A stretch of 64,000 bases of DNA from Marsupella aquatica (taxonomy: Eukaryota > Plantae > Marchantiophyta). How positions within the stretch are numbered: the stretch's first letter is position 1; each line of letters begins with the position of its first letter. Location: positions 5,469,303 through 5,533,302 of the forward strand of contig OZ316896.1 in the NCBI GenBank assembly GCA_973895155.1, read 5' to 3'. This document shows positions 1,289-24,606 of this stretch, piece after piece. The notes beneath the pieces are model-generated. The model searched no databases and was not told the origin of the DNA. It worked only from the letters and a program-made list of their open reading frames with translations. The translations under genes and the position numbers were made by a program.

Positions 1289-2118
1289 GAGAGAACTAAG
1301 AGGGAGGAGCGAGCGGAGCGCTTTTGGTGGTTTGGCTATGGCCGCTGACCTTCGGTGGACTCGCTATTGCGCCCTGTCTTCCTTGGCGTTAGACGGATCG
1401 TGAAAAAGATTCAGGTATGGCTGCCCTTGCTGTAACGCGAGCAGGACCTTGACAGGATTTGGGCTGGCAAAACATGATCTGAGCGGAAACAGAAGACTGA
1501 GCAGGGAAAAACTGGGAAGCAACGCGCTTAGATCCGGGATACTCTTGGAGAAAGTGGTGCGTGAACTGCTGCCTCGAGTGGTAGTTTTAGCTTCGAGCAT
1601 TGGAAAACCAATCACTCTGTGAAGCAAAGGCTGCTTTATCTTCTGCTTTTGCTTTGCACGGTGGGACCATTCCGGCTGGGGCTTTTGCAAGCGCTCTGAG
1701 TGTGTTTAGATTGACGCTGATAGCTTGAGATACGATCTGACTAGATGGAACATTTCAGGAGTTTGGGGATGCGGACACGAACCAGCTATGGTCGGGGTTC
1801 GGGGCGTGGGTCTACTTTGTATTTAGAGGTCGGCTCTTTTCACGGGAGTCGGACGATGGAGGCTGCAGGAAAAGGACGGGCTACATCAACTCTGAATGCA
1901 AACACCATTACAGTAGTGGATAGGGGCAGACGTATAGGTGAAACAGCAGATAACACAAGATTCTCTTTACAAGATGCTAGGGGCGGACTGAAGGCTGCTC
2001 CTTTTGATCTGTATGGCCACCCGGAAGGAAGAAATCTAACCACAGAAAAAGAAAAAGGAAACCGGCCTAGCAGCAGAAAATTCATTCCGCGCTCTGGACC
2101 TTCATGGGCGGATCAGAT
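1289..2118 (+). mobile_element. L1-type LINE copy A: 5' UTR and ORF1 N-terminus, split by the CACTA
   Basis: 5' motif GAACTAAGAG...GCGGAG is shared with the LINE 5' ends at ~39150 and ~60214. ORF 1745-2118 RFSLQDARGG..APFDL..KGNRPS.RKFIPRSGPSW.DQ matches ORF 58761-59825. Confidence 0.85.
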
Positions 2119-3563
2119 CACTAGTAGAAACCGGGGCAATTTAGACCAAACCTTATAGGACTAAGGCCACTAAGTCCTTTTTTACAACTTCAAATGACTC
2201 GGAACCATTGCACCGGTTCACATGAACACTACAAAAGACTCTGAGTGCTTTTTGGTTTAGGATAAGACTATGAAAAGTTTCCACGTACCCTACTTTGCGA
2301 AAGGGTGAACACTCTCGCACATGAGTGTTGTAGGGTTTAGTTGTGGGCTTCAATTTGATAATGGGCATATGGGGGGTTTACGTTTGCTATATTGAACACG
2401 TACAAACTCACTACATGTCTAAATGCCCTAATGTCTCATATACTCCATAGTGGGTTTAGGGGGGGTTTACGTCTCAAGGGTGGGCCGGTTATATGTGAAG
2501 GGTGTGGGTGGTCACCACTAAAGGGGGTTTAGTGGGGTTTATATGTCAAGGGTGGGCCGGTTAGGTCTCAAGGGGGTGGGGGTCACCAACATCCCGTTCT
2601 ATTCAAGTTTGCCAAGCCAAGAACCGGGTGCACGCATACCCAAGATTTTTGGGCTAGCATGATTTTCAATTCACAGTCGGCTCTACTTCACCAACATCCC
2701 GCTTTATTGAACTTTTCCAAGCCAAGAAAAATCAGTAACATACCCAAGATGGCCATGCAGTAACACTTTGTAGTGGTGTCTCACTTTGGGTGACACTCAA
2801 CGGCTCACTCAAACGGTAAGGCTAAGTGGCTCCCCTTAATGACTTAAGTCCCCTAATCTGGTAAAGAGGCACTAAACTGGTCTTTGGGAGTGACTTTGGA
2901 GTGTTCGGGCCATCGTCATTGGACGCAAAACGTGAGGGGTCCAAGGTTTGGGGTTTTACGTTGGATTTAGGTTTTGGCTGTAGCCCGGCTAAGAAGGTTG
3001 TGGCTGCTGCAACCTTCGATCAAAGCTAGTTGTGAGGGCTTCATTCTTTGGGGATTTTTGAGAGAAGGGCCTCTCATTGTTGCACGTTTCTCCTGACCCG
3101 CTGCACTGCCGATGTGTTGTGGCTGCACCCAGAGCAACTTGGTGTTGCCATTTGTTTCAAGAAGGTCGTGCTACCATCACGAGCTGCTGAGGAGAGGGCC
3201 AGTTGCTTGCAAAAGGATTTGTAGATTGTGTCGGAGGTCTAGATTTCTCCATTTCTACCAAGAAACGATGTGCAACAAGGCAATGTGGAGCGCAACGGCA
3301 ATGTCCAGGGTAGTCCTGAGTGCTTAGGTCATTCCATTCCTTATGAGAAATGTTGTGCGGCAGGGCAATGTGCAACGCAATGGCAACATTGTTGAGGGCA
3401 CTCCTGAGTGCTTAGGTTTTTAGTGAGTTGCAGTTTGGGAGGAGCTGTGATCTGGGGACTGAGGTGCTGAGGGTTTAGCTGAGGGGAGGAGCTGTGATTT
3501 GGGAAAGTGTTGCGGTGCCGAGGTCTATCGTAAGGTGAGGTGATTGCTGTGGAAGTTTAACTA

Positions 3564-3790
3564 TAGTGGGTCCTTAAGGTCGCGGAGGCATTCAAAGGAG
3601 GCGTGAGCAGGGCGGCAATCATTTGCTGCTGCAGAAGGTGGACATTGGAGTTGTGAAGGCGATGTGGAAGGCAACCATTGCGGAAGGTGGACTGCAGTGG
3701 GTCCTTAAGCTTGCGGAGGCATTGAAAGGAGGCTGAGCAGGGAGGCAATCGTTGCTGCTGCGGAAGGTGGACATTGGAGTTGTGAAGGAG
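3564..3790. repeat. ~130-bp tandem duplication inside the CACTA
   Basis: AGTGGGTCCTTAAG..GCGGAGGCATT.AAAGGAGGC and GAAGGTGGACATTGGAGTTGTGAAGG each occur twice ~130 bp apart. Confidence 0.8.
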
Positions 3791-6500
3791 GTCATGGAGC
3801 TTAAAGAGCAGTTGCAGAATTGGGAGCCGGTTGTTTGTTAGGAGGAAGCAGTTGATAGTGCTGCCATTGGTTATCAGTGTCATCAGCCAAAGGTTAGTCC
3901 CGGCCATGCAGCTGAAAGTGCGCTTCTTTCATCCCTTTTCCAGCAACTTTAGTTCCACATTGTTTTGTTGGGTTGTTTGTTGAATACTTTCATTGCCTCT
4001 ACAGGCTGAAGGTTACTATAGGCCTTGGCTTGCGCACCCACTCCTTACACTCATGCACAAAAACCAAACAACAAGTAGCAGAGCTCAAGCAGATCCGCTC
4101 CGCTCTGTTCTCAGCTGGCTGCGTAGTAGCCACATCTCCTCTGGTCCATCCTATTTGAGCAATGTCATACCTCCGTAGCATACAGCTTGCCCGATTGAAT
4201 GGTAGATTAGGTTCAGCACATTCTCCCTATGGCTGAAGAGTTATGGAAAACCCCAACACAATGAAATTCATTAAGATTTGTCTTGGCAGTCGAAGCTGCT
4301 GAAATTGCCAATTTTGATTGGATTCGGTAGGAATTCAGAATTTGTTGAGTTTGTTTGTTGTTGGATATGAGTTATTCAAGACTCCATGATTTGAGAGAAG
4401 CCATTCAGCATCCCCTGTAGATCCTGGTACCATTTGACATTGTGAGGGCTTGAAAGCCTCAAGAGACCGGGCCATCGCTGTATGCAGATTTTTGTTGTTG
4501 TATTCATGTACAGGATATTATTGTTCTATCTAGGCTGTGCCAAGCCAACAAACTGTTGACAACCAACATGGAATAACAACTATCCAGTGCAATGTCAGAG
4601 GACACTGTATGTCAAATACAGGAATGACATGGTTCTGTTTTCAATTCCCTGCTTGGATGAGGCATGGTGTTGCTTGTAATCATGTATTTCTTCACACTAG
4701 AAAAGCAGTCTGTCATATGAGGTTGTCGGGATTGTCTTCCGGTCAGTCATCTTACGGACACCTAGCAACGTCAAATGAAGGGCTCAAGCGGGCCATGTTG
4801 TCATTTTGAAATTTGTCTTTCCTTTTGCCATGCTACCCAATCATTCTGTTAGTCCATGAGTCATGGTTTCCCGTTGCCAAGAGACGCGTTTAGCTCTGTC
4901 TCTCAATCCCTCTCCCTCTTTCCCCTCTGACTGCCCAAGTTTTGCACCAATTCTTCAGTGTATTAGGGAAGAACAATCAAGTGTCTATCTTTTCTGCTTT
5001 TGGCCATGCTCCTTCACTTCTTGCTGCAAGCTCAATGTGCTTCAGCTATGGCAATATTCACTTACCCTGTCCCAACGCCACTGCCGTGAGCTGCGGGACA
5101 GCCAACAGAAGCTGTGTACAGATTGCATGTAAGTCAGGGTATTTTATGGATTGCGGAACAACTGTCCAAGTATGCTGCAATGGTCGGTCTTGCACAGCTC
5201 AATGAGTCAATTTCATTTTCCCTGTGCACTTCTATTTCTCAGAGAATTCCCTGGTCATGCTTATTTCCCCCAAAGTTAGAAAACAAAGAAGAAGAGCTGA
5301 CTAATTGTAATTCCAATCCATATCCTGATCGGTCAAGGATTGTGAACTACATTGGCCTTGTCATCGGCCGAGGTCACCAAATTTTGCTTGGTTTCATTCC
5401 TGTGGAGCACTGCTGTGATGGATGAATAGTGTTGTCTTGCCTTGAAGTGGGACATTGGATGAATCCCTCATGCCTTGTCTGTTTTCAAAAGCTATGGGCG
5501 GTTGACATCTTTTAGCATTCTTTGTGGTGGTGCCTTTGTTGCAGAGCTCCTGCTCCAACTGCCCCTTTTTCCAGGTAAGTTGTGCAACCTTGATTCCAGT
5601 ATAGATTGAAGTATTCTTGTCTTAATTGTGTCTATGTACATAGTGTCCTTCATTGCAACTGTCGCTTTGACCTGCTGAGTTTCAGCAAAGTGAATAAGGC
5701 ATTCTACCATAAGGCATTCTGCCATCATTCCAATCGACTTAAACAAAAATTGAGCTTCAATATGAACTGAGAGCATTTATCCCCTCCCTAGACTGATCAA
5801 AGTTTCCTAGCGAAAGTTTATATGTTTTAACTGTCCAATTGTAGGTTTAACCGTGAAAGTTCAGGCCGCTACACCAAGTGCTGGTTGGTGGCCTAAGTGC
5901 AGGGTGGTAGGCGGAGTACGTTGCCCAGCCCTTTTACTTTTGCATTGTTTGCCTATGGTGTTGGCATTTTTCTCACACTCATTCTCATCCTGCTATAATT
6001 GGCAATTCAACTATCCTCTAGAATTCAGTCAGAAGATGAAGTATTAGTAAGACTACATTTTCCCTTTGCTCACAATTGAATTTCATAATCCTACTTGTCG
6101 TAGCATTCTGCAAACGATCACGGTTTGCTTATGGCCATTATTTGCAATTTTCTGCTACTAAGATGTCTTCTTTTGAGCAGCATACACCGGAAGTAAGCAA
6201 TAGTGGAGGTTTAACTGCACATCAACACATCCAGTGAACTACCTCTCTGTTACGAACTGCAGGGTGAGACTTTCACTCTTTCTGGATATTGTAGTTTGTA
6301 AGCAAGTTGATTAGGACTGTTTCATGCTATGTTTATACTGTGACCTCTAACTGGAACCAGGGGAATGACACAGTGAGTGGGAACTGATAATTTAAGGTTG
6401 GTTGCTGTTGGTGAGGCAAGTACAACTCCTGCTCACCTTGCTGATCGAAGGTGCTTATCAGAGGACGTGAAAAGAGGACATCTCCACAAAAGCAGCACTT

Positions 6501-6950
6501 ATGGTGAGGACCCGCAACGCTAAATATGTGCGGCTTGCACGCAAGGCAGAGATGTTGCACCTTGAGTATGTCAGACTTGGGATCCTTCCAGCCCAGTCTG
6601 CATGGTACTTTGAGTACCCTGTTGTTTCCAGGAACAACTACAGCTGGCCTCTACCTGCTTCAGTACCCTTCCCGACATCCTTGGTATTTGTGTCTCTTGT
6701 ACATGACCCACCACAAATTAGGTGCCAAGGGTGTGTGCACAGTTGCCAATATGACTGTCCTGCCTGTAGGGCTTCTGGCCCAGAGTTGGATGACCGTTCT
6801 CTTGGATGTTGGTTTTTGCATAGAGCACAATGTATCATCTGGAACCATTTGCCATCCTGCAGTGTGTCTGGCGATGTCACTTGTCCTGCCCTCCCAGACC
6901 CCAACACCGGTGCCTTTGGTGTCTACACATGTTTGGATCACACGCTCTAG
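6501..6950 (+). CDS. 149-aa protein with a C-terminal PHD-like (C4HC2H) zinc finger; CACTA cargo
   Basis: Uninterrupted ATG ORF; CPAC..GC..(AQ)C..WNHLPSC...YTCLDH spacing resembles atypical PHD fingers; an extra CQGC precedes it; basic N-terminus. Confidence 0.5.
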   Translation: MVRTRNAKYVRLARKAEMLHLEYVRLGILPAQSAWYFEYPVVSRNNYSWPLPASVPFPTSLVFVSLVHDPPQIRCQGCVHSCQYDCPACRASGPELDDRSLGCWFLHRAQCIIWNHLPSCSVSGDVTCPALPDPNTGAFGVYTCLDHTL

Positions 6951-7618
6951 AGGACCACTTGTCTCACCGCATGCACAGACCAGAGACCATTGACCTATAA
7001 CTTAACACTCTGACTTGAACAGAGAGGATATTTACTTAAAATTTTGAATTATGAGCAATTTTGGGTCCAGGGTTTAGGGTCAACAGTACATAACTTATCC
7101 TATTATGGCTGCACTAAGTACAATATCCTAATTTAAGAGGCTAGCAAGCTCACTTAAAAGTCTCCTTTCAAAGACTGGAATTAATGGGCCATGTGATAAC
7201 CTGGAAAAAGTGATTTATGCCTAACTTATTTGTCTCATTCACTATCATAGCCTATTTAGGATGTATAAATTACAACCCTGATCACACTGCTTGATACCAA
7301 TCCTATTTGAAAAATGCCTGTTTTACATGTCACGACTATTGTATGTGATTCAAATGCATTAAATCTTTGTTGCAGATCTCCTTTGGTGAATCATAGCCAC
7401 AAAATTGAGGTGTAGGTGGAGCTATTGTACTAGGGGATCAGTTTTCAGAGTGGGCTCAACAAACCAAAAAGTATGTATACTCTGCATCTATGTGTGATCA
7501 TTTCATTGCAGTAGCAATTGCCACTCTAGTCTATATGCTATATTGTACTTTTTGTACACTGCTAAATTGTATTGTCTGTGCACTCTGCTAAATTGTACTA
7601 TCTGTCTCATGGGTAGGC

Positions 7619-8299
7619 ATGGCACGCCCTAAAATCCGAGCCAAGAAGTGGGGGACAGAGGTGAGCAACATAGGTGTAGTTGGGCCTGATGGTAGTAACT
7701 TCTCCGCACGTCAGATTTTCCAGAAGGCAGCTCATTGTTGTGCCATTTGTGACGATGGTGGGGGCTTAGCCATATATGAGGGCCCTTGCATGAGGCATTT
7801 CCACCTCAACCCGGAGTCTGACCTTGCTGCAGAAAACAACTGTCCAGGGGTGGGCCTCCCGTCAGCACACCAGGGAGGCTAGATGTGCATTGATTGTTTG
7901 GAGATGCAGGCTAAGTGTGCACAATGTGGGAAGTTGGGGTCTTATGAGGGCTCTGTTGATGCTCCACCACTTGTTAGGAAATGCCCTGACAAATATTGTG
8001 TGAGGTTCTTTTGTTTTTCATGTTTGCCCGATCTTGCCACAGCTTGCCCACTTCATAAGTGCAAGGCATGTGGTCAGCACGATGAAGATTTCTGGGTGGA
8101 CATAGTCCATTGTGTTAGGTGTCCCACCATGTGGCACTTTCATTGTTTGAAGGATCGTCAAGCAGAAGGCTATGCTTGTGACAGACACATCTATCATCAC
8201 TCTGCACATGGTGTTGATCGATGGATCTTCTATTGTCATCGCCATGCCATAGATCCTACTTTGCACACTCCTATGAGAGATCACATTTCTTGGCTTTGA
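7619..8299 (+). pseudogene. EDM2-like composite PHD-finger module (one in-frame TAG at 7880-7882); CACTA cargo
   Basis: CAICDDGG..EGPCMRHFH..C..CGKLGS..CPLHKC..C..CVRCP..WH..CL..IFYCHRHAIDPTLHTPMRDHI parallels the recalled Arabidopsis EDM2 PHD region (CAICDNGG..EGSCLRSFH..CKNLGS..CPLHKC..CRRCPKSYH..LIYCQEHEIDEELLTPVRDHV). ORFs 7619-7882 and 7883-8299 are in the same frame. Confidence 0.85.
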
Positions 8300-8929
8300 A
8301 CCTGAATAATGTACTTGCATAGTGCACCTGATGTGGATACCTTGGAGATTGCAGACATTCCAATTTTGAGAAGGACCTCTGTAGGAGAGGATGCTTAGGC
8401 AACAAGTACCCTAAGTTCATTACTTGTTCCTGGGTACATGCCTTCAAAAACTCCCCTTAAGCCTTCTAGGAACTTTTTTAACTCTGCAATCATTTTGATC
8501 ACGACTTACATGACACTTCTTAAATTAAATCAGGACTTCTGATTATGTGCATATAAGTTACAAGGCTATTTAAATTGCGAGAATTCCCTTAAAGTGTACC
8601 AACATTTTGTATTCTCATTGAATGTCTGCCCATTTACAACATCTGTACATGTGGCATCACAAAACAATTGCACTTGTCACCTTCAATATTGTGAAGGCAC
8701 ATATTCAAACTATGAGGTGCATCCTTGCAGGTGTCTAGTATGTTTGTCCCAATATTTCTCCCGTTTGGAATCGGAGCAGAGACTCACCAGACGACTAGAC
8801 TAGACCAAGTTATAAATGCAACATTTTAGGGGCCCTCCGATTATCAGGTGAACGCATTATCTTCCGGTCTGTTGTGATTAGGTGGGGTGTGTGTACATGG
8901 CCTCTAGGAAACGTACAAAGGTTGACCAC

Positions 8930-9743
8930 CCGCATCTGTTGGCTGGAATCAAAGCCATTTTGATTCCTGGCCACTATGGGTTCACCCAAGTGAGTTGGCC
9001 AATCGTACAAAAATGATTATCAGAGTTCCATGGGACTGAAGTCAAGGACATCACTCCACAGACTACACATGTTGTTGCGGGGACATGGCTGGATGTGATG
9101 AATAAGTGGTCATGGTCCTTCATTGATTCTGCCATTACCAACCAAGGTCTAAAAGTAGTTGAAGTCTCTTGGCTGACCGATTCTATTAAACATAGGTGTG
9201 TACAGAGTACTGAGCAATATGAGTTGTGGGAGAGTGAGGAGGCCACTGTAGAGGCTTTGGCTAAAAAGGAAGCCTATGAAGCAGCGGTAGAGAAACCCAA
9301 CTTTGCTTGTCCAATATGGACCTGTTATCAACATAGGACACCATCCTATGACTGCAGATGCTATATTGAATGAGCATGGCAAGGAGAGAAATACCATTAT
9401 GAAGGGGTTCAGTGTGGTATTTGCAGAAGAGGGAATTGGGGAGACTAAGTGAAGACTGTACAAGTCCATAGTTGTTGAGCTAGGTGAGACAGTGGAAGAG
9501 AGTCTAACAGAAACCTCCACTCATGTTGTAGGTCTGTCATACATGAAAATATGCAGAAAATTCTTTAAGACAATAGTGCGTGATTTTGTCATGAACAACA
9601 ATCTTTGGGTGCTTTCCCCTGATTGGCTTCTGGAATCAGCAGCAACAGGGAAGCGACAAAATGCTTGGGACTTTGATATTTTTGAGGCCTGGCCCTCCAA
9701 GCTTCAGCGAAGATGTATATTTACCAATGGTGGGAGAGAGTGA
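8930..9743 (+). pseudogene. Two tandem BRCT domains (DNA polymerase lambda-like); CACTA cargo, disrupted
   Basis: Domain 1: LLAGIKAILI..QK*LSEFHG..ITPQTTHVV..KVVEVSWLTDSI. Domain 2: MKGFSVVF..GIGETK*RLYKSIVVELG..STHVV..VLSPDWLLESA..DFDIF. Both have the THVV and W-x-x-D/E-S BRCT signatures; TGA stops at 9014 and 9450, and a frame change between the domains. Confidence 0.75.
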
Positions 9744-9883
9744 GGAGTAGGAGTCCCTCATATTTTTGTATAAATCACAATTTTGTAATAAATGTGATCC
9801 TTGAACTAACTCATCTTGTCATGGTTGGTCGCAGTTGAAGTGATTGTTGTTTCCTGCTGCGTGGGGTGTGACTGTGAATCTAC

Positions 9884-10429
9884 TTGCTGGGCTCTGTTTG
9901 GCTGAAGACTTTGGTGGGTATGCTGCCTCTTCCAGACCGACAGGCCCTATGTAGGGTCCTCCTACGGGTTGCATCGTGCATGGCTGCTGCTTGGGCTTAC
10001 TTGTGTGGATTGGTAACCAGACAGAGTGTAGCTCCATCCGAGATAATGCCTGTAGACCTTAGATGTGTTGTGAATGCTGTGGTGAATGAGGATGCACAGT
10101 CCGAAGAGGACATTTACTTTTCAACAGATGAGTTAGACAAGCATGATGCTGTAGGTGGTTCCTTGTTGCCTGATTTGGTAGATGATATAGTTCTTGTGGT
10201 GTCTGGCGCACAAGATATCTGCAAATATAGACTAATTAGTACCCAGTGGAGGGACTTGGTAGCAACATGTGCACCGTGGAGGGCACTGCTACCACTGCTT
10301 GTAGGCACGGATCGAAGACCACCATGGCATGAGCAGGGTTTAGACCTTGATGACTTAATGTACATGCCTAGGTACCTTAGGGCTGAGTGGCATCAACAAC
10401 AGGATTGGTATCCGTATTTGATGTGGTAG
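9884..10429 (+). CDS. F-box-like protein or exon; CACTA cargo
   Basis: SLLPDLVDDIVLVVSGAQDICKYRLISTQWRDLV resembles the F-box consensus LP..I..L..D+.+.R.VS+.W+.+; ORF has a non-ATG start, so may be an internal exon. Confidence 0.45.
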   Translation: MLGSVWLKTLVGMLPLPDRQALCRVLLRVASCMAAAWAYLCGLVTRQSVAPSEIMPVDLRCVVNAVVNEDAQSEEDIYFSTDELDKHDAVGGSLLPDLVDDIVLVVSGAQDICKYRLISTQWRDLVATCAPWRALLPLLVGTDRRPPWHEQGLDLDDLMYMPRYLRAEWHQQQDWYPYLMW

Positions 10430-10760
10430 TAAGATGAGGACATCTCACACCGGTCTCGCACCTGGCACCTGTGTCTATGACTATACATGATTGGACTCTG
10501 ATATGGTCATGGATGTACGTGCAAAGGCAGTACATGTGAGGACAGCGGAGGAGTTGACACCCTCAAACATTTAGGAATTTTGTCTCATTCACTTGAGAAT
10601 AGGTACATGACTCAGGCACCTATATTTTTTGTTTTTTTGTTTTTTTGGAACGTTATGCTACGTATTTTGGCAAGTACAGTCGGGGGTGAAATCCTTAACA
10701 GGGAGTGTATTTTTCACTTGCATAATAAAATGACAGGGTGCTGAGTGCGTGTGTATAGTG

Positions 10761-13700
10761 ATGGCTCCAAGGTTGCCTCTTCACAACCCATTTAGGATTA
10801 GGCATCATGATTCTAAATTGTGGATGCATGAACAAGCCCGGGCCGCCCAAGGTAGGAGTAGGAGGATGAGATGCCCATGCACACAGTGCCAAGGATTCAA
10901 GTCGTTGAGTTTGAACACTATGCACCTTCACCTGCTGCGGCATGAAAGGCACCCTCGGCGAGACCCTCGGTGGAGGGTTTGGAATGTACCAGCAAAAGAA
11001 GACTCCTCTGATGAAGAGTGGAGAGATGACTTTGTGGATTCTAATACAGCTAGGCGTAGAGACTACGTAGAGCAGGACATAGACTGTGCAGAGGATGGTC
11101 CTGGGGTACAACATGAGAACGTGGATGACCAAGATGGAGATGCAGAGGCAGTCACTGAGGATGGTGGGATGGATGTCCCAAGAATGGTTCAAGAGATTTT
11201 TGAAGACCTTGATGCTTTCTATGACACAGTGTAATTAGAAGAGGACAATGAACCGCAGCCACACATTGGAGACGGCCAAGCTAAACCTGACTTTGACATT
11301 GGGGAAGGTGTAGCAGAGAGGGAGTGGGTGTTTGGGGGCCCAAAACACATCAAAGAAGCTTGCATTCCTATCTACGAGGGGTCGAACTGCTCCAAGCTGG
11401 GTTTTGTCGTGTTGTTGTTGAACATCTGTGGCAATCACAATGTTCCCAATATATTTGTGACAGAGTTGTTGACCTTCTGGCGCCAAAATGTGTTACCAGA
11501 TGGTAATTCAATTCCAAAAAATATGTATGAGGCTAGGAAATTGATGTCTAACCTTGGGCTGAACTATGTGTCTATTGACGCATGCCCTGATGGGTGTGTT
11601 CTCTTTCGCAAAGAGCATGCAGATAAATTGACATGCCCTCATTGTGGTAAGCATAGGTACAAGAATGTAGGGAAATGTACACACCCTGCCAAGGTTCTTC
11701 GTCATTTTCCTCTCATTCCTAGACTACAACGTCTGTTTAGATGCCCTGCCATTTCCAAGCTGATGACATGGACTCCTGATAACAAGAGCAGTGATGGCCT
11801 GCAGCGTCACATTGGAGATTCCAACCATTGGAAATTTGTTGATGAGAGGTGGCCACAGTTTGCTGCAGAGAAGCGGAACTTTCGATTTGGTCTATCACTG
11901 GATGGAGTAAACCCATTTGGAGACAAAAACAACCGTTATTCATGTTGGCCGGTTACGCTGCTAAATTACAACCTTCCCCCATGGATGACTACAAAGAGGT
12001 TTTTTGTCATGATGGTGCTGCTAATCCCTGGACCAGCTTCTATGACCGAGCAATTCATAGATATCATGTTGGCTCCAGCAGTGGAAGAGTGGAAGACTTT
12101 GTGGATAGAAGGGGTGTTAACCCATGATGTTCTGAAGGGGCTTCTTTGACCCAGCCCCTTTAGATTGCATGCAATTTGTTTGCTGGATATAGCAGATTAC
12201 CCAGGCCATGGCATCATATCTGGACGAGTGACAAAGGGCTATGTGGGGTGCACACCATGTGGGAAAAATGTGACAAGTGAGTGGTCGCATGCCTTGCACA
12301 GTATGAAATTTCAGGGGCATAGAAGGTATCTGCCTGCTGATCATCCTTACAGGCACACACGGTCTCAAATTGCACACTTCAACAACAAAATAGAGCTTTG
12401 TGGCCCACCATAGAGGGTCACCAGAGAGCAAGTCCTGAGGTGCGCAGCCAGGAAGGCTGATTGGGACAAGAGAAGTGTCACTGATCGAGAACCTGAGGAT
12501 CCAGTGGTGAAACACGGTGTGAAAAGACAGACCTTGATGGACTTGGACTTGGAGTACTGGAGGGTAATGTACTTAGCCTCCAGCCCCTGTATGATTGCAG
12601 ATTGGAGCAATGGTGGATTGATGTTGGTTACAATCCTCCTATTTGGTTAATTAGTGTTTCTGTTGTTGAATTCTTTGCTTTGTGGAGTGCAGGAATTCGA
12701 GCCCAGCAAACACAATGTGGACGTCATGCACATTGAGAAAAATATTTGTGAGAGCTTGCTGAAGTTCTTGTCGGGTGAGAAAGATACAGGAGCAGTTCGA
12801 GCTGATATGCAACAGAAGGGGATTTGCCCTCACCTTTGGTTGAAGCCCCATGCAAGCAATCCCAATGTACTTCTCAAGTTCCAAGCTCCCTATGTGTGCA
12901 CACAGGAAGAATGGAAGACATTCTTGTATAGATTGAGCTGTCTGAAAGTGCCCTCTGGCTATGCTGGTGCCTTCAAGAAGCATATTACAAAGAATAAACT
13001 TGGCAGTATGAAAACACATGACTTTGATGCAGCACATTCTGCCCCTATGCCTCAGAGGTCTCATGCAGAAACCAGTCCGTAATGTCATTCTTTGACTGTG
13101 CAATGTATTTTGCCGTATATGTGTGAAAGTGTGGGATCCCCAAGGATTGGAGCAGTTGAAGCAAGATGCTGCTTATGTCCTCTATGACTTGGAGATATAC
13201 TTCCCCCTTGCTTTCTTTGATGTTATGACTCATCTCCTAATCCATGTGGTAGAATTGCTAGGGCAGTATGGGCCAGTCAGTACCAGATGGATGTACCCTA
13301 TGGAGCGATACATGGGTATAGCGACGGAGACAGGAAACAGGTAAACAGGATTTTTTTTTCCTGTTTTTAAAATGCTGTTACCAGGAAAAAATCACTGTTA
13401 CCAGGAAAAATGACAATTTAAAAATGTCTCCTAAAACATGTTATTTCCAAAAAAAATTAACAATGCAACATTTTTGGCTAGCTTTGGGCGCTACTATTAG
13501 CAGCGCCGGGCGCTAGCAAAAAAAATTGGTCGACCGAAAAAAAAACTTTTTTTTTCTCAAAAAAAAAAATTCAAAAAAAAAATTCAAAAAAAAAATTCAA
13601 AAAAAATTCAAAAAAAAATTCCACCCATTTTCCTGTTACCAGTTTTTTTTCCTGTTACCAGTTTTTGTTATTAAATCTTGTTTCCTGTTTGCTGTCTTTT

Positions 13701-14863
13701 GTAAACACCTCCGATACATGAAGTTGTTGAAAGGTCATGTGAGAACATACTACAGGCCTGAGGCTTCCATGGCATTGGGGTACATTAAGGATGAGACGTT
13801 GGGGTTCCTAACAGAGTACATGGCTGGGTCTGGTGAAGCTATGACAAGAGTTTGGAAATCTGGTGAAGATGATGGAGTGAGTGGCGAGGTTGTTGAAGGT
13901 GTGGGACATGCTGTTCAACTGCCTGTTGCGATTCGAGACAAGGCTCATTCATATGTGTTGGCAAACACAGAGCCTATGCAACCATGGTGGAGGTGAGTGA
14001 TTGAATTGACTTGCCTTTGTTGTGATGCTTCTTGTCTGTTCCAAGGGTGATCTTAGGTTGTCATGTGTTGTTTAGACCTAACTATGCTTGTACCTCATAT
14101 TGCAGGGAATATGATATGCAAAAAGCTACACACTCTGGGTAGCAGGATCCCTTCCCACAGTTCGAGCAGTGGATTCGGGTGACAATTTGAGAGCATAGTA
14201 GACATCACCCAGATATGGAGAAGGATGTATCTTCTATCTGTGCCACCACGATTGTCTATTTTGACCTACAAACGGATGAGAGCTTATGGAAATCATTATC
14301 GAGTGAGGGATGAGCAGGGTGACCATTGTGTATCATATGATTGTGGTTTGATTTCTGTGTTTGAGCAGAGAACCTCTGAAGAACAGAGGGGGTGGATGAA
14401 GATGGGTTACGTGGGGGAGTTGATAGACATTTGGGTGTTGAATTATGGTAACACAAGTGTCCCAGTGATATTGATGAAGGGATCATGGGTGAAATCAGAG
14501 TGGCAGAGACCAAGGGCCACCATGAAGCGTGATCATGATGGGTTCTTGTTGGCCAATTTTAGGTCCAGAGTACCAGAATGGTCTGAGCCTTTTGTTTTCC
14601 CTAGCCAAGTTGAACAGGCTTTCTTTGCAGATGTGGAGGAGTCACATGGCTGGAGGGTGGTATGCCATAGCCAAGCACGGAACAGGCGGATGGATGGAAG
14701 TAAAGTAGAGTTCAGTTTGGATGACCATGCTGCATTCGAGCATCCTAGTCACGAGACTGTACTTCCAACTCGGGCAGGGACTGACTACATCCCCTTAACA
14801 TTGAGAGAGACATATGATGAACCTGAGGAGATGGAATATGATGAGGTTGATGATGTGCAATAG
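10761..14863 (+). pseudogene. CACTA TnpD-type transposase (Transpos_assoc, Transposase_21, DUF4218, DUF4216) with stops, a frameshift and a MITE insertion
   Basis: CPCTQC..HLLRH; IDACPDGCVLF..CPHCG; LRHFPLIPRLQRL; GLSLDGVNPF..SCWPV..YNLPPW; DYPG; DVMHIEKNI; FFDVMTHLLIH..RWMYPMERYM; EPFVFPSQVEQAFF. GT-AG introns predicted at 12564-12692 and 13993-14105. Confidence 0.95.
13314..13711. mobile_element. MULE-like MITE inserted in the transposase DUF4218 region
   Basis: 8-bp TSD CGATACAT (13306-13313, 13712-13719; a 9-bp reading is also possible); ends GGGTATA...CACCTC; imperfect ~40-bp TIRs with AAACAGG repeats. Removal restores PMERYM-KLLKGHV. Confidence 0.88.
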
Positions 14864-17800
14864 GCAACAACTGGCGATTGGCAAGTATGAGGTTGAGGAT
14901 GACTACCTGCATAGAGTCATAGAACGGGAATTGCTGCCTGGAATGATGTTTAGGATAGTTGGATATGCATGAAATTGATTGATACTTTGAATTTAGTGTG
15001 CTGATTCTCCCTGTTTGGTTGTGGGTGCTGTGCAGAAGCTATGGGGGAAGAGGGTGATGACATGGAGACAGACATGGGGCTTGGAGAGTGGGGTGAAGAG
15101 GAAAGATTGGATATGGATGGAGACCCAGATGCAGGGGGCTCACAGAAAAATGCACCTGTGCAGGATTTAGGGCCCTCATCAAGTGCCAGGTAGGTGGGCA
15201 GCTAGAGAGAAATCACATAATCCATACCCTAGAAGGAGCCAGAGTTATTAACAAGGGACGCCTGATAATTATGATGATGACTATGATGGAGCAGAAGATG
15301 GATGGGATGAATATGAACACCCAAAGCGTGGTAGAGACGGGTACAGAGGGCAATGGAAAGGTGAGGAGGATGATTGGACAAGTAAGTGTCTTGTGCTAGT
15401 GATTTTGTGATGGTAGTAGAGATTTAGCTCAATATGGACTTATCTGATGTGTAGCTAGGGCAAAGAGTTTATCTTATAGGTCCATGAGTGTGGCATGTAC
15501 CTGTTGGTATGCAGACTCTGATTGGGACAATCATGAAAACAACAAAGGCCATCCACGTTCAGATAGGAGGCAATCATTCACAGGCGGGAGAAACGGCCCT
15601 AATTCATCAAGACAAAGCAATAGGACAAGTGGTCCAGAACCATCTATGCGCCAAGGGAGAGGTAACTTGGTCATTGCAGAATTGCTCTGAAGTCCAGTGT
15701 ATATTTGGCAGCAGGATTTATGATTCATACTTACCTAATGGATCCTGTAAATGTGCAGGGACTCTAGGGAGGTTTGGACAATGCAATCTAGGCCATGGGG
15801 GGAGATCAGGCCGTGGAGGGACCCCAGGCCATGGGGGGACACCAGGCCGTAGCACTTTAGGGAGTACCAAGGCAGGAGACAGTAACAAATTTGGTAAAGT
15901 AGAAGTGAATTCCGATGGTTGGATAACTCCCACATGTGATGGTAAGAACCGTTGGCATTCTGACCTAACAGGAGAAGTATTGCGTTGGTTAGATTTGAGC
16001 ATTACAGAGTTTAGGAGTCAGAACAAAGCTGAGTGGGCTGCTATCTGCAAGGACATTCTTGAACGGTGGGACTATGTTGGTAATGATGGTAATTAAGGGC
16101 CCAGTTGAAGATTGCATATCAGATTATGCAATGAGGATTTTGAAACAAGAGAGGCATAGGTTGAAAAGAATGTGGATAGACAATGGTTCTAACAGGAGAA
16201 TGCCACCACCCCCATCATTGGAATTGGATCAATGGACACGGTTAATCAAAGGGTTCATGTTGGAGGCTGGGCAGAGCAAGAGTGAACTGATGATGTCAAA
16301 TGCTCGAGGCAAAGTGAAACACCTGTCACAGGCTGGGAGAGGAAGTTATGCTCCAGTGAAAGAACAATTGGTAAGGCAGTGACATGCCTGATAGTAAGCC
16401 TCAAACTTATCATCTTGCTACCATTATTACATTTTCATTGACAATCAACACTTGGTTTCATTCATATGTATGTTGATGTGGACTGCAGAAGAAATTGACA
16501 GGTGAAGAACCATCAGCACAAGAAGTGAGAGAGGAGTTCATGAAACAAAGGAGTGAGGTGACAAGTGTGACTTCCAAATAGGTGATTATGTTGTAATTTT
16601 GTATGTTTTGTGACTATTTGGCCTTGAGCATCAGAAAGAATTGTAGTAGGAAGTAAGCAACCAGTTCTTGGGGACAATTATCTGAGATATGTAAGCTGTG
16701 TTATGATAGGGAACTGTTACAACTCTCATAGAGATGTGTGAACGGTTGAAGTCATTAGAGTGTGGACTCCCTCGAGTGGAAAGTAAATTGGCTGATCGTT
16801 TGGATATTGTGGAGGCATCTGTAGCGAACCTTCTTGCATTAGTGGAATCTAATTTCAAGCTTGTGATTGAAAAATTGGGTGGTTCCCAACCAAACAATGA
16901 GGGCAACATTGTACAAAGTGTGCCCTTGTTAACAAAAAAGGGAATTGGCAAATCTAACACAGGTATGGAAATGACACCGGCCCATTGTTCATTGTGTCCT
17001 ATGTTCAAATGTTAGAAGTAAGTTTTCATGAATTGAGTGAATGGTTTGAATGCAGGAAGAGTGGAGGCAGAGAAGGACCCTGTAATCAGTAAGCAGAATG
17101 GCAAGAAGGTTGTTGAGACAGGTAACCTGCTATGATCCAGTACATTACATTTGAAAAGTGCATGGAGTTTTGTGAAGCTTAAGCCGGTTGGAGGTAATCT
17201 TTTCTGTAAGAACTGGTTGGATCAACTGGGATCTGAAGTGACATCATGATTGATGTATCAGGTGATTCAAAGAGCAATGAAAAGGATGTGCCCAGTGCCT
17301 CAGTGACCATAGCCAAGGAGGTATCAGGTAAGCTGATGCTTTAAATTCCTCTCCTAGCATTGTTGAGAAACAATTCAATGGTGAATAGATTGAACCTGAA
17401 TATTGTGGTGTGTTTATTGATCAACAGAAGCAGACATGGAGGATATGGCAATGGCAAAGAAGGGGAAGAAGACTGTTCATAATGGTAAGGAGATAGTGAC
17501 AACTTTGTGGTTGGTGACATGTACATGGCGCACATGTGATGAGTGATTCACTTATGTTGGACAATGCACTGAATTGTAGTTGATGTAGAGTTGACAGACT
17601 CTCAACCAAGTGGGAGCAGGGTGAAGCGACGTCAAAACTTGGGAGCAACATTAGATGCAAGTAAGATTGTAGATGCTTCAATTGAAGCAAGTACAATGTT
17701 GGCAGATATTGAGATGATGTTGCAGGGAAATCCTGCTACACAATCGGAAGTGTCAAATATGGATGCAAATTCTTTGAAGAAGAGTGTAGCCAATTCTCGA

Positions 17801-18124
17801 TCACCAGCACAAAACACTCGTGCCAAAGTCATGACTCGCAACCAAGGTATGAATAATGTCAAGTATAAGCCACCCGGGAAAGCCAAGAAAAACAGCCAGG
17901 GTAAGGTGGAGGTGATAGCCACAGCAGAGCAAGTCCATAATCTTCTATCATGGGAGGATGACTCGCAGGTATGTGTGGGTACAGGCATTTTGCGACCAGA
18001 TCATGCTAAATTCCATGGCAAAGTGGTCCTGGATGACCATGTAGTAGTGTTGTTGACTACAGTGATTGTATCTGATTGTAATTTGTCATTTCCGAATAGA
18101 GACGATGATCCACCTCAGAAAATA

Positions 18125-19687
18125 CACTAGTACATATTAAGCTGATTTCCGATGCTCAATTTTTGCGAACAATCGGCGTCCGATTCTTTTAGCATCGAAA
18201 ATTCCGATTATCAACAAATGGCAATATGCCATACTCTCGGCTTTGGATACCTTCATTTCCGATATAATTGACAACGGAACCTTTCCGATGCGTTAAAAAA
18301 CGGATCATATCCGTTAGAAAACACATCGGATCCCTCAACAGAAACTTTGATTGATATGTCCGATGTTTTTTGTAACGAAAATGATGTGCGTTACAATATT
18401 GATCGGAAACTTTCCGTAGTTAATAATAACGGATATTATATCCGATTGTGCTAACATGGCAAAGTCCGATGTTGGGAGAATGGGAAAGTCCGATGCTGGG
18501 AGTATGGGAAAGTCCGATGCTAGAAGAATGGGAAAGTCCGATGCTGGGAGTATGGGAAAGTCTGGTTATGACAAAAAGAAAATTTTTGATTGTGTTAGAA
18601 TGAAAAGTTTTGATGTGTTAGATGGGGTATGTGGTTGCACCGACATACTCTTCCCAAAAGATGCAATCATTCTTGCATGCATGAATAACTTCATACTTGA
18701 GGCAAATGGACTTGAGTGTTGTTTTTGCCTCATTCCAAGACCCAACATATTGTTCCCTTACGGAAATATGTGCTCAACATGCCAAGTCCAAAATACATCA
18801 TCTAGAAGGAGGTTGCTTGTCCCATGTAGTCTTTGTTGCAAGTCCAACAACAACATAGTTGATAAAAGATGAGACAATCAGGAGCCATTGACGCTGAGGC
18901 TTTGGAAGGACCAAAATATCATCCATAACTAATAAGCCATAATTATCCCATATCAAATCTAATGAAGGAGGGCTTTACTATCGATGAATGACCCCTGCCA
19001 GATTTCTATTGGTTTCTCCTAGGGGAATGTAATAGGGTAACTAGAATAGGTCACGTGATGCAAAGATCTAATCTCATGATAGAGAAAAATGGATCAAGAA
19101 TGGGTCCAAATTATGGGTCTTAGTAAACTCACAAGTGTATAAAATCCCCAAACACTCTAAGTCAAACAACAAAAGTGCTAAGCTTGCATGTACAATGTAA
19201 GGAATAAGAACCACAAAGTTAAGCTCATGTTGGAGGAATAGCAATTGGGATGGGTGACCAATTAGTTGAGAAAATTTGAAGAGTTCACATGTCAAGGGAG
19301 ATGGGCACCTAGCTCATAGTTCCAAATGAAAGTAGAAACCCAATTAAAGGAAGAGATGGGTGACCTGAGCATGTCGCGTCCGCTGACATGCATATCCCAT
19401 TTTGATTGCTTCGGACTTTCCCATTCTCCTAGCATCGGACTTTCCCATTCTCTCACCATCGGACTTTCCCATTCTCCTAGCATCGGACTTTCCCATTCTC
19501 CCACCATCGGACTTTCCCATTCTCCCACCATCGGACTTTCCGATAGAAGTCCGATTGTCGATATCCGATACTATTAAAATGGCATGTTGCGATGCTAGTA
19601 GTATCGGATATATGGTTTTTCAAATTTTATTTTACAAAGGCGTCCGATGTGGAGAGAATCGGAAAAAGGAGGTAAAATGTACTAGTG
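18125..19687. mobile_element. Nested non-autonomous CACTA, 1563 bp
   Basis: TIR CACTAGTACAT / ATGTACTAGTG; TSD ATA (18122-18124, 19688-19690); many TCCGAT/ATCGGA subterminal motifs; 24-bp tandem arrays in opposite orientation at ~18455-18565 and ~19410-19545. Confidence 0.95.
19204..19259 (+). promoter_or_regulatory. 5S rRNA-derived internal control region (box A/IE/box C-like), Cassandra-like
   Basis: ATAAGAACCACAAAGTTAAGCTCATGTTGGAGGAATAGCAATTGGGATGGGTGACC aligns with plant 5S ATCAGAACTCCGCAGTTAAGCGTGCTTGGGCGAGAGTAGTACTAGGATGGGTGACC. Confidence 0.6.
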
Positions 19688-20653
19688 ATAATTGCATATG
19701 CAGTAGGATCTCTTGTGCTCTGGCCATCAGAGTGTGTTAGTCTGCAGTGACTAAATGCAAGTGTAGATAGAATCATGTGAATTGTGTTACATTTTGACAT
19801 TGCCTTGGAAAGATCCAAGAAATATTTGTACCAATTTTATTTGGTAAAGAGGATGAAGGAGCCGTTGTGTGTGACATTGATATTTCTGAATTCTGTATGT
19901 ATGAAACAAGTGATTGATGTCAAACTATGGCTCTATGGTGATTGTCTATGATACTTGAATCTGTTTTGTATCATTTCAGTATTAGTGTGTATGGTATAAA
20001 CAAATGCTTTGTGACCTTCTTTATAGTCTATGATGTTTAAATCTGTGAATTCATATTAGTGTACATGGTATAGAAGATGGCTTTCTGAAAATTTATGTGA
20101 GGTTCTAATGTTAACATGGTGAATGGTGAGCTTATAGAGTGAGTTCATTCCAAGTACACAATAAAACATGAATGAAATATGTTATTTGTGCACAAGAGTG
20201 AGTTCATTCCAAGTAGTATAGTGGGGTCTTAATTCATCACTCATTTCCAGTTGACATGAAAGACTTATACATACCCCACAAAGTGTCTACTTTAGTCGTT
20301 TTATAAACCCTCACAAAGTGTCTACTTTAGTCGTTTTATAAACCCACAAAGTATACTTAAAGACTACCCTCCATAACCTTTTGAGTCGTTCCCAATGACT
20401 CACCATCGCAGCCCATAAAAGACTGAAAAAGACTCACCAAACCTACCCACACAAAGACTACAATAGACTGAAGATCTAGTCTATAAAACGACTTATAAAC
20501 CAGTCCTATAAAGGACTCAAGTTGATTATAGTAACAAAACATACGACTCATAGTCCTATAAAGGACTGGAGTCCTTCCCAGTCATTTCCAAGTCCTATAC
20601 GGTATTGAATAGTAGTTTAATGGGGTCTAAATACCCCCCGGTTTCTACTAGTG

Positions 20654-21795
20654 GATGGACCTGGACATACAAGAGGCAGAGGCAGCGGTGGCATTAGAAT
20701 TACAAGGTCAGCAACCCTCGCGGCCTGAACATTCCTATAGAGCAAGGGAGAGAGTGGCACCTGAGAACTCTGACCCGAGTGTGCAATTCCCTGCTGCTGG
20801 TAGTGTCCAGCAGAGATCGGGTGGGAGCCATTGGCTACCGGAGGAGACACGACCACAATAGAGAGGCAGGCAGCAATCCGATTGGAATGACTCAAGATTT
20901 GATCATACTAACAAAGCGGATTATGACGGGGTCTCGGAGGAACCCTTGAATACATGTTTGGAAATGCTGAGGAAAATTGCAATCAGCTCCACTAGTGACT
21001 GGCCTAACACGTTACACACCAAAATCCAATGGTCCATTGAGGAGGCTACTCTCTCTATTACCGAACTATACAACTGCACCATGATGTGTTATTTCACGGA
21101 TCGCCCCCTCTCTTACCGGCCTTTCATGATTGGGCCGAATTTGTGTTCATTCAAGACCTGGGCTGGCCGATAACTTAGATCAAATTTTCCGGTAAGAATT
21201 TCTATGTGATCACATTTGAATTCCCAGAGCACCGTGATTCGGCCCTGGAGCTGGCGCCCTTTTTTATGGATAGGAAATTTGTGTTTACCTTCCCGTGGGA
21301 GCCCTCCTTTGATGCAAGCAGTGACTCCTACACCAAGCTGCCGGTCTAGATTGAGCTACCATTCAGAGCGCTAGTACTCGAGGGCTGCAGGAAAAGGATT
21401 GCAGAGTCATTTGGGAAAGTTCTATATTACATTCAGGGCGATGAGCGCAACTCATTCCCTCATGATAGGGCTTGCATTTTGTGGGACACTGGACAGGAGG
21501 TTCCGCGGTGTGTCGGAGTGGATATTACGGAGGGCATCACAATCTGGCAGCCGGTCATATCTAGGAATATATCGTATCATTGTTTTAAATGCAACCAGAA
21601 GGGTCACTTGGCAAGGGATTGTAAAGCCCTTGAGCAGGAGGAGAACACTTCTAAAGGCAAAGAAATAAACGGGGATAACAGGTCAAGGGAGACGGAGGGT
21701 GACAACAATAAAGAAGCCAGGATGGTGGCGGAAACCTCGGCTGGCGGCAATCAGAGGCACTCTACGAACCCAAACCTGCACCGTCAAGACAACGG
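20654..21795 (+). pseudogene. LINE copy A, rest of ORF1 (DUF4283-like + CCHC zinc knuckle), 3'-truncated
   Basis: NTCLEMLRKIAISSTSDWPNTLHT..; CFKCNQKGHLARDC; close match to ORF1 at 36430-38163 and 58350-59825; abuts a gypsy protease fragment. Confidence 0.9.
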
Positions 21796-24067
21796 CTTTG
21801 ATTGCAGACTTACCCAACATCAAGGGCTGAGCACCAGTATCCAGTAACACTCTCTCTGGCTGGTATATGGCTCCAATAGGCCCAACTAATCGGAAGATAC
21901 CACTCCGATTATCCAATGACACAACACTAGGTTTAAACCTAGTCCTCTCAAATGCAAGGCGTGCTGGTAAATCCACCAACCTTGCTGCTGCTGCATGCCA
22001 GGTCTCACTAGTAGCAGTGGGTGGTGTCAACTTTTTTGCTCTAGAACTGCATGCTGCCTTTGCATAAGAAGCCAAAATGGGAGTATCCTCGCATAATGTG
22101 GCTGCCAATCTGAACACATCAGTTTGGACCAACTCCCAAGTTCAGCATGTCTGTCGTTGAAAATAATGGGGTGCGCACTATGGTTGTAGCTGCCCCCAAC
22201 AAGGTACCTGTCATCCCTGCTGCATCACTACGTGATTCGGCCAACTGACCCACACTAGGGTTTGTCTAAACCGGGTTCATAGAGGCAGTCTAAACTGTCT
22301 CTAACAATGTAAAAGACTGAGGAAGCTTTGTCTGCCGACGTTCATCCCCCCTTTGTGGATCTAGCTCCACTACTGCTCCTCGGGGCTCAAGAGCTTTTGC
22401 TGCCCCACGCGTCAAAGCTGTTGATGCATCAATGTGTGCAGTGCCACACATGAATCCCATAGTGACAAGATCTCCATCAACCCCATAAGATGTGGAAGCC
22501 CCATAGGATGTAGAAGCCCCATCACCAGAAGCAGGTCTCACCTGAGAACTAGCCATAGCAGCTAGTTGTTGCTCCAATTGAGCAATCTTAGTATCCTTAG
22601 GATCTGTGGTCATAGCAGGAGCAGTATCACCTCCCTACCTTGCTACATGTGGCATACCTCGGCCATGACCACCACCTCTACCTCCTCTTCCCTGATCATG
22701 TGTGCATTGTCCTCCTCTCCGTAACTCAGGATGGAGTGAAAAACACCTATCCTTGGTGTGTCCAGGAGCTCCACAATGATCACATTGCCGCTGATCAGGT
22801 GCTGAGGCCCCTCCTGACCCTCTATGATCAGGGCAATACCGCTGCGCATGATCCCCACCACAGGTCCAACATCCAGGCTGCTGTCCAACATAGGAAGGCA
22901 CAGGTCTCTGACTGGTAGATTCCCGTGCAATGGGCTTCATCAGTGATTTCACTAACTCTGGACATTCTTTTGTCCATTTTTTTACCATGAAATTTCCAAC
23001 ACCAATTATTCTTTTCCCTATAACTTGAGTTCTAGAGTACATTGTATGTTATGCATAGATTTATTAGGAGTAGCTTGTTAAGCTTCATATATCTTGATCA
23101 AAAAATTTCAAATATGATATTGATAAGTCTCATATTTATCTACAATTTAGTTGATTTAAATTTCCAAAAAATTGTTATGAAATTTCCAAATTGTTAATAA
23201 TATTCCAGAATTAGTGAAACTATTGATCTTCTCCCTCTGACTCTTACGTGCAGTAGGCTGTGATGTGGGTGTAGATGCAGCCTTTGGTGCTTCCTTGGCA
23301 AACCCGGAAGTCACCACTTTCTCATTCACCATATTGAGCTTGATGCGCTCTGAAAGTGTAAAAACAACTACCAATGTGGGATCTGCATCCCTAAGTAGAG
23401 TGACATCTCTCACTCTGCGTCGCAATTCTCTATCCAGAATTGCATACCAAAATTGGACTGCCCGAGCCTCTGTCACTCCCTTGGTGACAGTGATCAATCT
23501 ACGCATACGAGTGTATGCCTCACGTAGACTCTCTCCAGTCTTGCGCTGAAACTCCTGGAGACCCTTCAACTTATCAGTCCTCACACCCTGATAGTTTTGC
23601 TTTAATACTTCAAAGAACTCCACCACAGGGTTAAATGTTGGCGTAACTCCAACCCCCGTCACAATCGCACCGGTAGGAGTAGCGGTGGATGTTGTTGGAG
23701 TGGTACTGGTAGATGGTGTGCCACTCTGGCTAGTGTTGCTAGAAGAAACAACAGCTGTAGCAATGGGTTGGGCAGCCGCTCTAGTGCCATAGGTGATGGA
23801 CACATAATTAGGTGACCAATGCTGCCTCCATGCCTCAATCTCAACCAAATGAGCCTTCTGAAACTCATGGTAGTCATCCATGGGTGGCCCCTCCAAATGC
23901 TGAAATAATCCCTTCCATGGCATGAAAGGGGTAAACAACGTGGCATTACGTAATGACTGCATATCGCACCACGTATCAAACTCTTGGATGAAGTCATCCA
24001 GATCAATCGTGCCAACTACACCAGAGTATCGTCGTGGGCCCTTTGTAGCCCCGTACATCTCTTCCAT
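21795..24067 (-). pseudogene. Ty3/gypsy gag-protease remnant (element 1)
   Basis: Gag motif LQEFQRKTGESLREAYTRMRRL; two zinc knuckles CWTCGGDHAQRYC and CDHCGAPGHTKDRC; aspartic protease VLLDTGA; RT missing. Confidence 0.85.
22939..23227. mobile_element. AT-rich MITE in the gypsy gag
   Basis: Imperfect ~24-bp TIRs ATCAGTGATTTCACTAACTCTGGA / TCCAGAATTAGTGAAACTATTGAT; TSD reads as CTTC (4 bp) or AT (2 bp); either excision restores the gag frame. Confidence 0.75.
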
Positions 24068-24490
24068 GTCTCACAACAAAGGTGCAATCACCTGATGACA
24101 AGGAGAACTGGTCACAGAGTCCTCGTCAGAATCACTATTTGAAGCTGCACTTGCAACTATTATCAATGTTGTTGGCCGAAAGGGCACCCCACTTCGAGTG
24201 AAACCAGTCCTCTGTCCCTCGGACAGTCCCGTAGCAGCCAAAGAATCTGTGATGACAAATCTGCCCTAAATCATCACCATCACCTTCATAATAGGCTTCA
24301 CAATGCCCCAAGGTTGTAGCTAAGAATCCATGCAAAATTAATCCAATTTATGCATCTAGATGGATTCAGAAGTATCCAAAACCTCTAAATAGCTTCTGAT
24401 TTGGCCCAAAATAGGTCTCTAGACAAACTAATAAGTGTATAAAGCCCCCTGGCCCTTTAACTTAGACAACAAGTTGTGAAAGCTTGTGTG

Positions 24491-24561: not shown

Positions 24562-24606
24562 CCCCTTGGAGTTATGCACCAACTTAGGCACTCCAAACCA
24601 ACCAAT

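Follow-up and report, generated by a model that had tools for sequence, protein, structure and literature searches.

Do the extra coding sequences carried by a plant DNA transposon represent passive fragments of host genes, or accessory genes retained by selection? This question is raised by a locus of the liverwort Marsupella aquatica, where an En/Spm (CACTA) transposable element (TE) carries four open reading frames (ORFs) upstream of its TnpD transposase gene. The element lies in a 64,000-nt stretch of contig OZ316896.1 (assembly GCA_973895155.1, positions 5,469,303 to 5,533,302 of the forward strand), hereafter the window. A first-pass annotation of the window had described the cargo as a PHD-like finger, an EDM2-like composite PHD, two BRCT domains and an F-box-like protein, and had proposed a selected toolkit rather than a random capture. 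Our analysis supports this proposal for three genes: the separate branch formed by the PHD proteins, the excess conservation of all three families and the existence of intact stand-alone relatives suggest that the EDM2-type PHD, the tandem BRCT and the F-box protein are likely old, selected accessory genes and not passive fragments. This support does not extend to the first ORF, whose conservation, counted in three sequences, falls within the neutral range.

A four-gene cassette inside a CACTA element

The element occupies positions 2119..20653 of the window (+ strand, 18,535 bp), starting at 2119(+) and ending at 20653(-) with the terminal inverted repeat (TIR) CACTAGTAGAAACCGGGG, the two copies of which are identical across 18 bases. 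The 3-bp target-site duplication GAT stands on either side, and the window holds the motif CACTAGTAGAAA exactly twice, starting at 2119(+) and spanning 20642-20653(-). An empty site was also found, with one contig of run X1 connecting 2109 to 20653. Both flanks match a copy of a long interspersed nuclear element (LINE)-like sequence elsewhere in the window (58456-59697), indicating a LINE-like repeat as the site of insertion. CpG across the element body is only about 0.25-0.4 of expectation. The TnpD gene (10761..14863, +) is decayed and contains introns; its Pfam families are Transpos_assoc, Transposase_21 (E 3.6e-36), DUF4218 and DUF4216. With TIRs beginning CACTA, a 3-bp duplication and TnpD domains, the element is a CACTA/EnSpm transposon by every tested criterion except TnpA, bounded as the first-pass annotation had it.

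The four cargo ORFs, which we call modules 1 to 4, are co-oriented on the + strand immediately upstream of TnpD, again as first described. Each has its own ATG; the ORFs are intronless, cut to single modules and separated by AT-richer spacers of 177-669 bp. The window copy is dead, as three stops, one frameshift and an 8-residue F-box deletion break three of the four modules, and intact PHD and BRCT proteins are no longer made. The earlier attribution of this damage to C-to-T decay holds in part: it fits the PHD stop, a TAG at a place occupied by Trp in 5/5 relatives, as well as the first of the BRCT stops, where the intact relative P0006 has Arg; the second (Cys in P0006) fits less clearly, and the frameshift and the deletion do not fit.

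Module 2 (7619..8299, +) is a 226-codon stand-alone EDM2/NSD-type triple PHD; in this copy the TAG lies at 7880, and at 7775 a Cys has become Tyr. The composite PHD call is borne out by three NSD/EDM2-type PHD matches in Pfam (E 6e-5 to 9e-3, under the curated cut-offs) and by a six-sequence profile that matches PHD1-3 of NSD2/NSD3 with E 2.6e-10 to 4e-8. Identity to the nearest long host proteins in databases is 32-41%, the best such match being from the liverwort Calypogeia fissa (79 bits), with an angiosperm close at 75 bits. Long plant matches have the architecture DNMT1-RFD plus PHDs, which fits the published description of EDM2 (PMC7529245); the EDM2 label is thus an assignment made here from the architecture of the long matches. 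Module 2 shares with host EDM2 and EDM2-like proteins the three NSD-type PHDs and a C-terminal TPxRDHIx motif. Unlike these host proteins (600-1,800 aa), it is about 220 aa long, is devoid of the DNMT1-RFD, acidic and methyltransferase-like (ELP) regions, and belongs to a separate branch. Given a low-confidence AlphaFold model (predicted local distance difference test score, pLDDT, 53), Foldseek ranks PZP and NSD PHD domains first, with E>0.003.

Module 3 (8897..9743, +) is a single tandem-BRCT gene of about 290 codons, interrupted in this copy by two TGA stops (9014 and 9450) and, near 9300, by a frameshift. The two BRCT domains reported earlier are both present, Pfam matching them in different frames, but they are two halves of one gene, because both resemble a single intact 294-aa protein, P0006, at 59% and 58%. 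The BRCT match of P0006 reaches E 3.5e-15 (56.4 bits vs a Pfam cut-off of 21.3), two repeats lie within a single ORF in P0006, P0106 and P0172, and five full-length two-domain relatives (264-313 aa) show 22-61% identity. The module 3 profile matches BRCTs of repair proteins. The only PDB match of P0006 is a weak one to a Pol X family (TdT) BRCT (E 0.061), and the pair appears to lean weakly to the BRCTs of that family, with a likeness that presumably includes plant Pol lambda; Pol X family BRCTs bind end-joining factors. The BRCA1-type phosphate pocket, which we take to comprise Ser/Thr-Gly and Thr-x-Lys residues in repeat 1, is probably missing: in a weak alignment of BRCT1 with BRCA1 (E 0.03), a Trp that is near-invariant in the family stands opposite the phosphate-binding lysine, making a classic phosphopeptide reader doubtful.

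Module 4 (9920..10429, +) encodes a 169-aa F-box protein that begins with a hydrophobic segment, contains an acidic Y[FL]S motif and ends in a conserved C-terminal tail of ~45 aa. In this copy the F-box scores just E 0.066 in Pfam because an in-frame deletion has removed 8 residues from the motif. These residues are present in 9/9 aligned relatives, and the bases that encode them exist in contigs of X1, X2 and X5, as seen from loose ends at 10190 in the first two runs and a gap of 24 bases in a contig of the third. All six relatives scanned match F-box or F-box-like, P0025 above both Pfam cut-offs and five below, and a match to FBXL5 has E 0.008, in agreement with the original assignment. F-box proteins are adaptors of Skp1-Cullin-F-box (SCF) ligases. 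The stretch 9920-10110, with its hydrophobic N-terminal segment and acidic Y[FL]S[AT]D ahead of the F-box, is common to the F-box relatives.

Module 1 (6501..6950, +) is a 149-aa ORF, open in this copy, with a basic N-terminus and the conserved Cys/His pattern GCxHSCQxDCPxC...CxxWNHL...TCPAxPDPxTG...CL. Its designation as a PHD-like finger had to be abandoned, as neither the C4HC3 ligand pattern nor a profile or fold match was found. Module 1 and its two relatives (53-54% identity) have no Pfam match at E<=10; a PDB sequence search and an atlas search gave no match; alignment to PHD had an hhalign probability of 0.14%; Foldseek found nothing for a low-confidence AlphaFold model (pLDDT 52); and the PHD-like residues, CWFLH and the first Cys of CQGC, are not retained in the relatives. 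Domain searches thus uphold three of the four domain calls, and without the one for module 1 the broader statement that every module is an interaction domain for chromatin, repair or ubiquitination is not supported. Judging by its relatives, module 1 is a real conserved ORF, unclassified, which we would regard as an orphan that is possibly metal-binding.

Modules 1-3 have basic N-terminal starts (MVRTRNAK at 6501, MARPKIRAKK at 7619 and MASRKRTK at 8897), common to many relatives, which are possible candidate nuclear localisation signals. Modules 2 and 3 have AG dinucleotides shortly before their ATGs, an arrangement that alternative splicing from a common leader would fit. In one X1 contig, a joint of 6939 to 13135 ties module 1 directly to the DUF4218 region of TnpD (short side 22 bases), possibly an internal-deletion derivative.

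Family-wide presence, relatives and conservation

The modules are not peculiar to the window copy; confinement to it would have spoken for passive capture. Part of the interval 4000-13300 was found in 9/11 listed runs with five organism labels, and in all four runs compared (four organism labels) contigs extend over the whole cargo, with depth in 30/30 bins. In the high-copy runs X1 and X2 the depth of the cargo is close to that of TnpD, and representation drops about tenfold from the core to the 5' arm: the median summed contig depth, which is not copy number, for cargo, TnpD and 5' arm is 130,239, 187,785 and 10,257 in X1, which may be the source sample, and 56,903, 55,914 and 9,831 in X2. 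The step lies at about 6390, suggesting a conserved core that includes the cassette, whereas the 5' arm (2119..6388), which has subterminal repeats and no Pfam match and is much rarer in the family than the cargo, is variable.

Relatives were sought with the shared frame 7592-10426, read with X at stops, which gave 179 matches at E<=0.001. Among the 150 matches listed, headed by short stand-alone PHD, BRCT and F-box proteins, none spans two modules, and a single fused multi-module protein was accordingly rejected. Stop-free stand-alone relatives exist for each of the four modules, at 22-80% identity, and the distant ones are presumably TE-borne as well. When 45 proteins of the short families were looked up, two were on contigs over 6 kb, P0015 (PHD, 42%) and P0106 (BRCT, 29%), each with a single contig in ENA that is 13,432 bp long. 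The two proteins probably lie on the same contig, in which case the PHD-BRCT linkage has been kept at these levels of identity. A metagenome scan returned only 8 loci, all host EDM2-like; a scan for the TIR found 0 loci in viruses and, in bacteria, 1 match that has nothing to do with the element; and no F-box was found in a scan of viral contigs.

The first-pass annotation had named near-identity to host genes as a sign of passive capture, and the PHD proteins are far from it, both in their identity to long host proteins and in their placement. In a tree of 128 PHD regions (11/139 profile matches having been dropped by a coverage and length filter), 17/17 short proteins fall on one side of a branch vs the 111 others (Shimodaira-Hasegawa-like approximate likelihood ratio test, SH-aLRT, 100; unrooted), and a careful 44-row tree, likewise unrooted, sets 13 short proteins against 31 rows with support 100/100. 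The short-PHD branch is long, fast-evolving and outside all host EDM2-like rows, and is internally about as deep as the host set. Within the flowering-plant host branch there are further short derivatives of EDM2 that consist of the PHDs only (P0055, P0061, P0033, P0105 and P0142; loci L002-L007), an independent case of trimming to this cassette.

Across 26 Cys/His columns defined from 84 long host proteins, module 2 in this copy keeps 23. Ten relatives covering all 26 columns keep 22-24, with an identity outside these columns of 29-77%, and three partial ones keep 19/21, 16/20 and 15/21, the corresponding identity for the 13 relatives together being 26-77%. In neutral simulations, 12/23 Cys/His sites were kept at 53% identity and 9 at 40% (maximum 18-20), and at most 0.3% of the simulated PHD sequences remained stop-free. 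When frames were forced open in 300 simulations each and invariant columns were counted, the observed values exceeded the neutral ones for the PHD (41 vs 12.0), BRCT (10 vs 3.5) and F-box (10 vs 3.1) families, 0/300 simulations reaching the observed value in each case.

Several points weigh against selected accessory genes. These conservation tests are protein-level proxies, not ratios of nonsynonymous to synonymous substitution (dN/dS), and conservation is inflated by the choice of aligned proteins by similarity and subject to alignment bias, with indels ignored. Retention of Trp/Cys is clear for the PHD only, being near or within the neutral range for BRCT, F-box and module 1, and the invariant columns of module 1, counted in only three sequences, number 65 vs a neutral 60.6, a value reached by 74/300 simulations. 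Depths for cargo, TnpD and 5' arm are 96, 336 and 11 in X5 and 20, 445 and 2.4 in X7; the cargo being well under TnpD, many TnpD relatives in these runs may be without it. None of the listed contig pieces covers two modules. The link between P0015 and P0106 is drawn solely from equal contig size, and one chance equality of this kind was seen across families, P0102 and P0141, from different sources, sharing a size of 1,333 bp. The distant relatives, known from protein records alone, could be host genes. Finally, the TE-type PHD is without a ~20-residue stretch of host PHD2 and has two host His sites swapped, so that its ligand may differ from that of EDM2.

Weighing the explanations

Taking both sides together, we judge it distinctly probable that these are selected TE accessory genes, and give a probability of roughly 60% to the reading that they are selected accessory genes with a host-manipulating role. 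At least three genes (EDM2-type PHD, tandem BRCT and F-box) would have been captured long ago, trimmed to binding modules and held under protein-level selection, helping the element act on its host. If expressed, the PHD-only protein would present EDM2's histone-reading fingers without the other domains, and would bind heterochromatin-marked element copies or compete with EDM2. [quoted passage not shown] As part of an SCF ligase, the F-box protein would direct one host factor of restriction or silencing to degradation, with its conserved C-terminal tail as the likely substrate site, and the double BRCT would make contact with the end-joining machinery where excision or insertion breaks the DNA. 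An anti-silencing role is plausible for the cassette; should the genes indeed be selected accessory genes, the odds that counter-silencing is their main role would be about even. A bolder version is a tentative one that we consider rather doubtful, namely, an old CACTA lineage with a virus-like multi-gene host-manipulation cassette of EDM2 reader, F-box degrader, Pol X-like BRCT and new metal-binding family, in which the stripped EDM2 reader would find or shield heterochromatic copies, the F-box protein would have a host silencing factor degraded and the duplicated BRCT would steer break repair.

The same conservation data would apply if the modules were selected factors for targeting or completing transposition, the PHD tethering the transpososome to a type of chromatin and the BRCT pair recruiting repair for insertion. 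Chromatin-reader-guided integration occurs in other TEs, the likeness of module 3 to repair-protein BRCTs suits such a role, and this copy lies inside a LINE-like repeat in a repeat-dense region. However, the modules are separate ORFs, unfused to TnpD, and an F-box suits the removal of a host factor better; we consider a mainly targeting role unlikely. We consider it quite improbable that the relatives are clustered lineage-specific host genes, a block of which was passively captured and amplified by the CACTA, with the TE copies decaying neutrally. The relatives are seen without genomic context, most modules of this copy are broken, and Pack-CACTA uptake of genomic blocks is documented (PMC13317346); like Pack-CACTAs, the element holds host-derived coding modules within CACTA TIRs. 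Yet it is an autonomous-type element with whole-domain ORFs that have their own start and stop, are deeply diverged from the host and are conserved as proteins. The high host identity and neutral decay that mark Pack-CACTA capture were not found, the distance to database host proteins and the excess conservation being seen in their place; 0/45 of the short-family proteins lie on a chromosome-scale record or are named beyond 'hypothetical' or 'BRCT domain'; and the position of the short-PHD branch and the intronless, trimmed ORFs likewise argue against passive uptake.

Very improbable, in our estimate, is a role as RNA decoys or camouflage, in which the proteins would be irrelevant and the effect would come from small RNAs directed at EDM2 or repair genes of the host. 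Camouflage by captured genes has a precedent (PMC13317346), and Drosophila telomeric retrotransposons have captured silencing-related host genes, nxf2, piwi, aub and the F-box gene CG12520 (PMC13534243). Those captures are 140-235 bp fragments in retroelements, whereas here full protein modules lie in a DNA transposon. Whole-domain ORFs that retain Cys/His sites speak against a decoy, and an identity of 32-41% to known EDM2-like genes is too distant for small-RNA pairing, unless the element's own host has a much closer gene.

The rest of the element and its known counterparts

Downstream of TnpD, a fragmented coding region (14864..18124, +) occupies the usual CACTA place of TnpA, the identity coming from position only; a Pfam search of its ORFs gave no match. 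It is followed by a nested non-autonomous CACTA (18125..19687; 1,563 bp) with an ATA/ATA duplication, inverted 24-bp repeat arrays and the TIR CACTAGTACA, related to that of the outer element; its empty-site joint, 18121-19688, is present in runs X1 and X5, and it holds a 150-codon Cys-rich ORF with no Pfam match. TnpD itself is interrupted by an A-rich insertion of ~400 bp (13315-13720) with ACAGGAAA repeats, which has a 72% look-alike at 29214-29485, inside a long terminal repeat (LTR)-retrotransposon-like region. Beyond the element, self-BLAST and translations, judged by eye, show LINE-like (zinc knuckle, endonuclease/reverse transcriptase) and Ty3/Gypsy-like sequence intermingled over 20654-35700.

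A Pfam search for further cargo in 12 frames of the 5' and 3' arms (six in the 5' arm) gave no match, and a KH/SF1-like fragment (GxxG loop) proposed near 5280-5380 was rejected, having neither Pfam nor PDB support. Deletion joints in the 5' arm, 5423-6095 in runs X2 and X5, and an X1 contig that matches 6319-6659 and has 448 different bases upstream indicate that family members differ in their 5' arms, which might hold other cargo in other members.

The element shares TIRs, the 3-bp duplication and TnpD domains with autonomous En/Spm (CACTA) elements, some of which carry extra ORFs such as Peptidase_C48/ULP1. A survey that covered the active TIR elements of 1,007 plant genomes (PMC12973397) describes extra non-transposase ORFs as common in them; its Table S6 has no PHD or F-box row for CACTA accessory proteins and one RTT107_BRCT_5 singleton among 775 clusters, whereas here three such genes stand in one cassette. 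The combination, already thought to be undescribed, was not found in the literature searched, a scope outside which lie subscription papers, Repbase and bioRxiv supplements. If our reading holds, the element would work like the VANDAL Mutator-like elements that carry VANC, likewise a TE accessory protein and probably a repurposed host chromatin regulator, MAIN (PMC13547354). VANC belongs to another superfamily, has other domains, none of which the cargo here shares, and is sequence-specific and functionally proven, whereas the cargo has no VANC-like member and its roles are predicted from sequence.

Proven plant TE-encoded counter-silencing comprises few cases, VANC and one CACTA microRNA, according to the same survey (PMC12973397). 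Should the bolder version be true, no earlier counter-silencing system of CACTAs would have been based on proteins, and the cassette would lead directly to the host factors that restrict these elements. The substrate of the F-box protein would reveal a host restriction factor, and the PHD-only protein would serve as a test of whether TEs exploit EDM2's heterochromatin-reading pathway. Module 1 adds an unclassified protein family, and a conserved accessory set on a multi-copy CACTA provides ready test objects.

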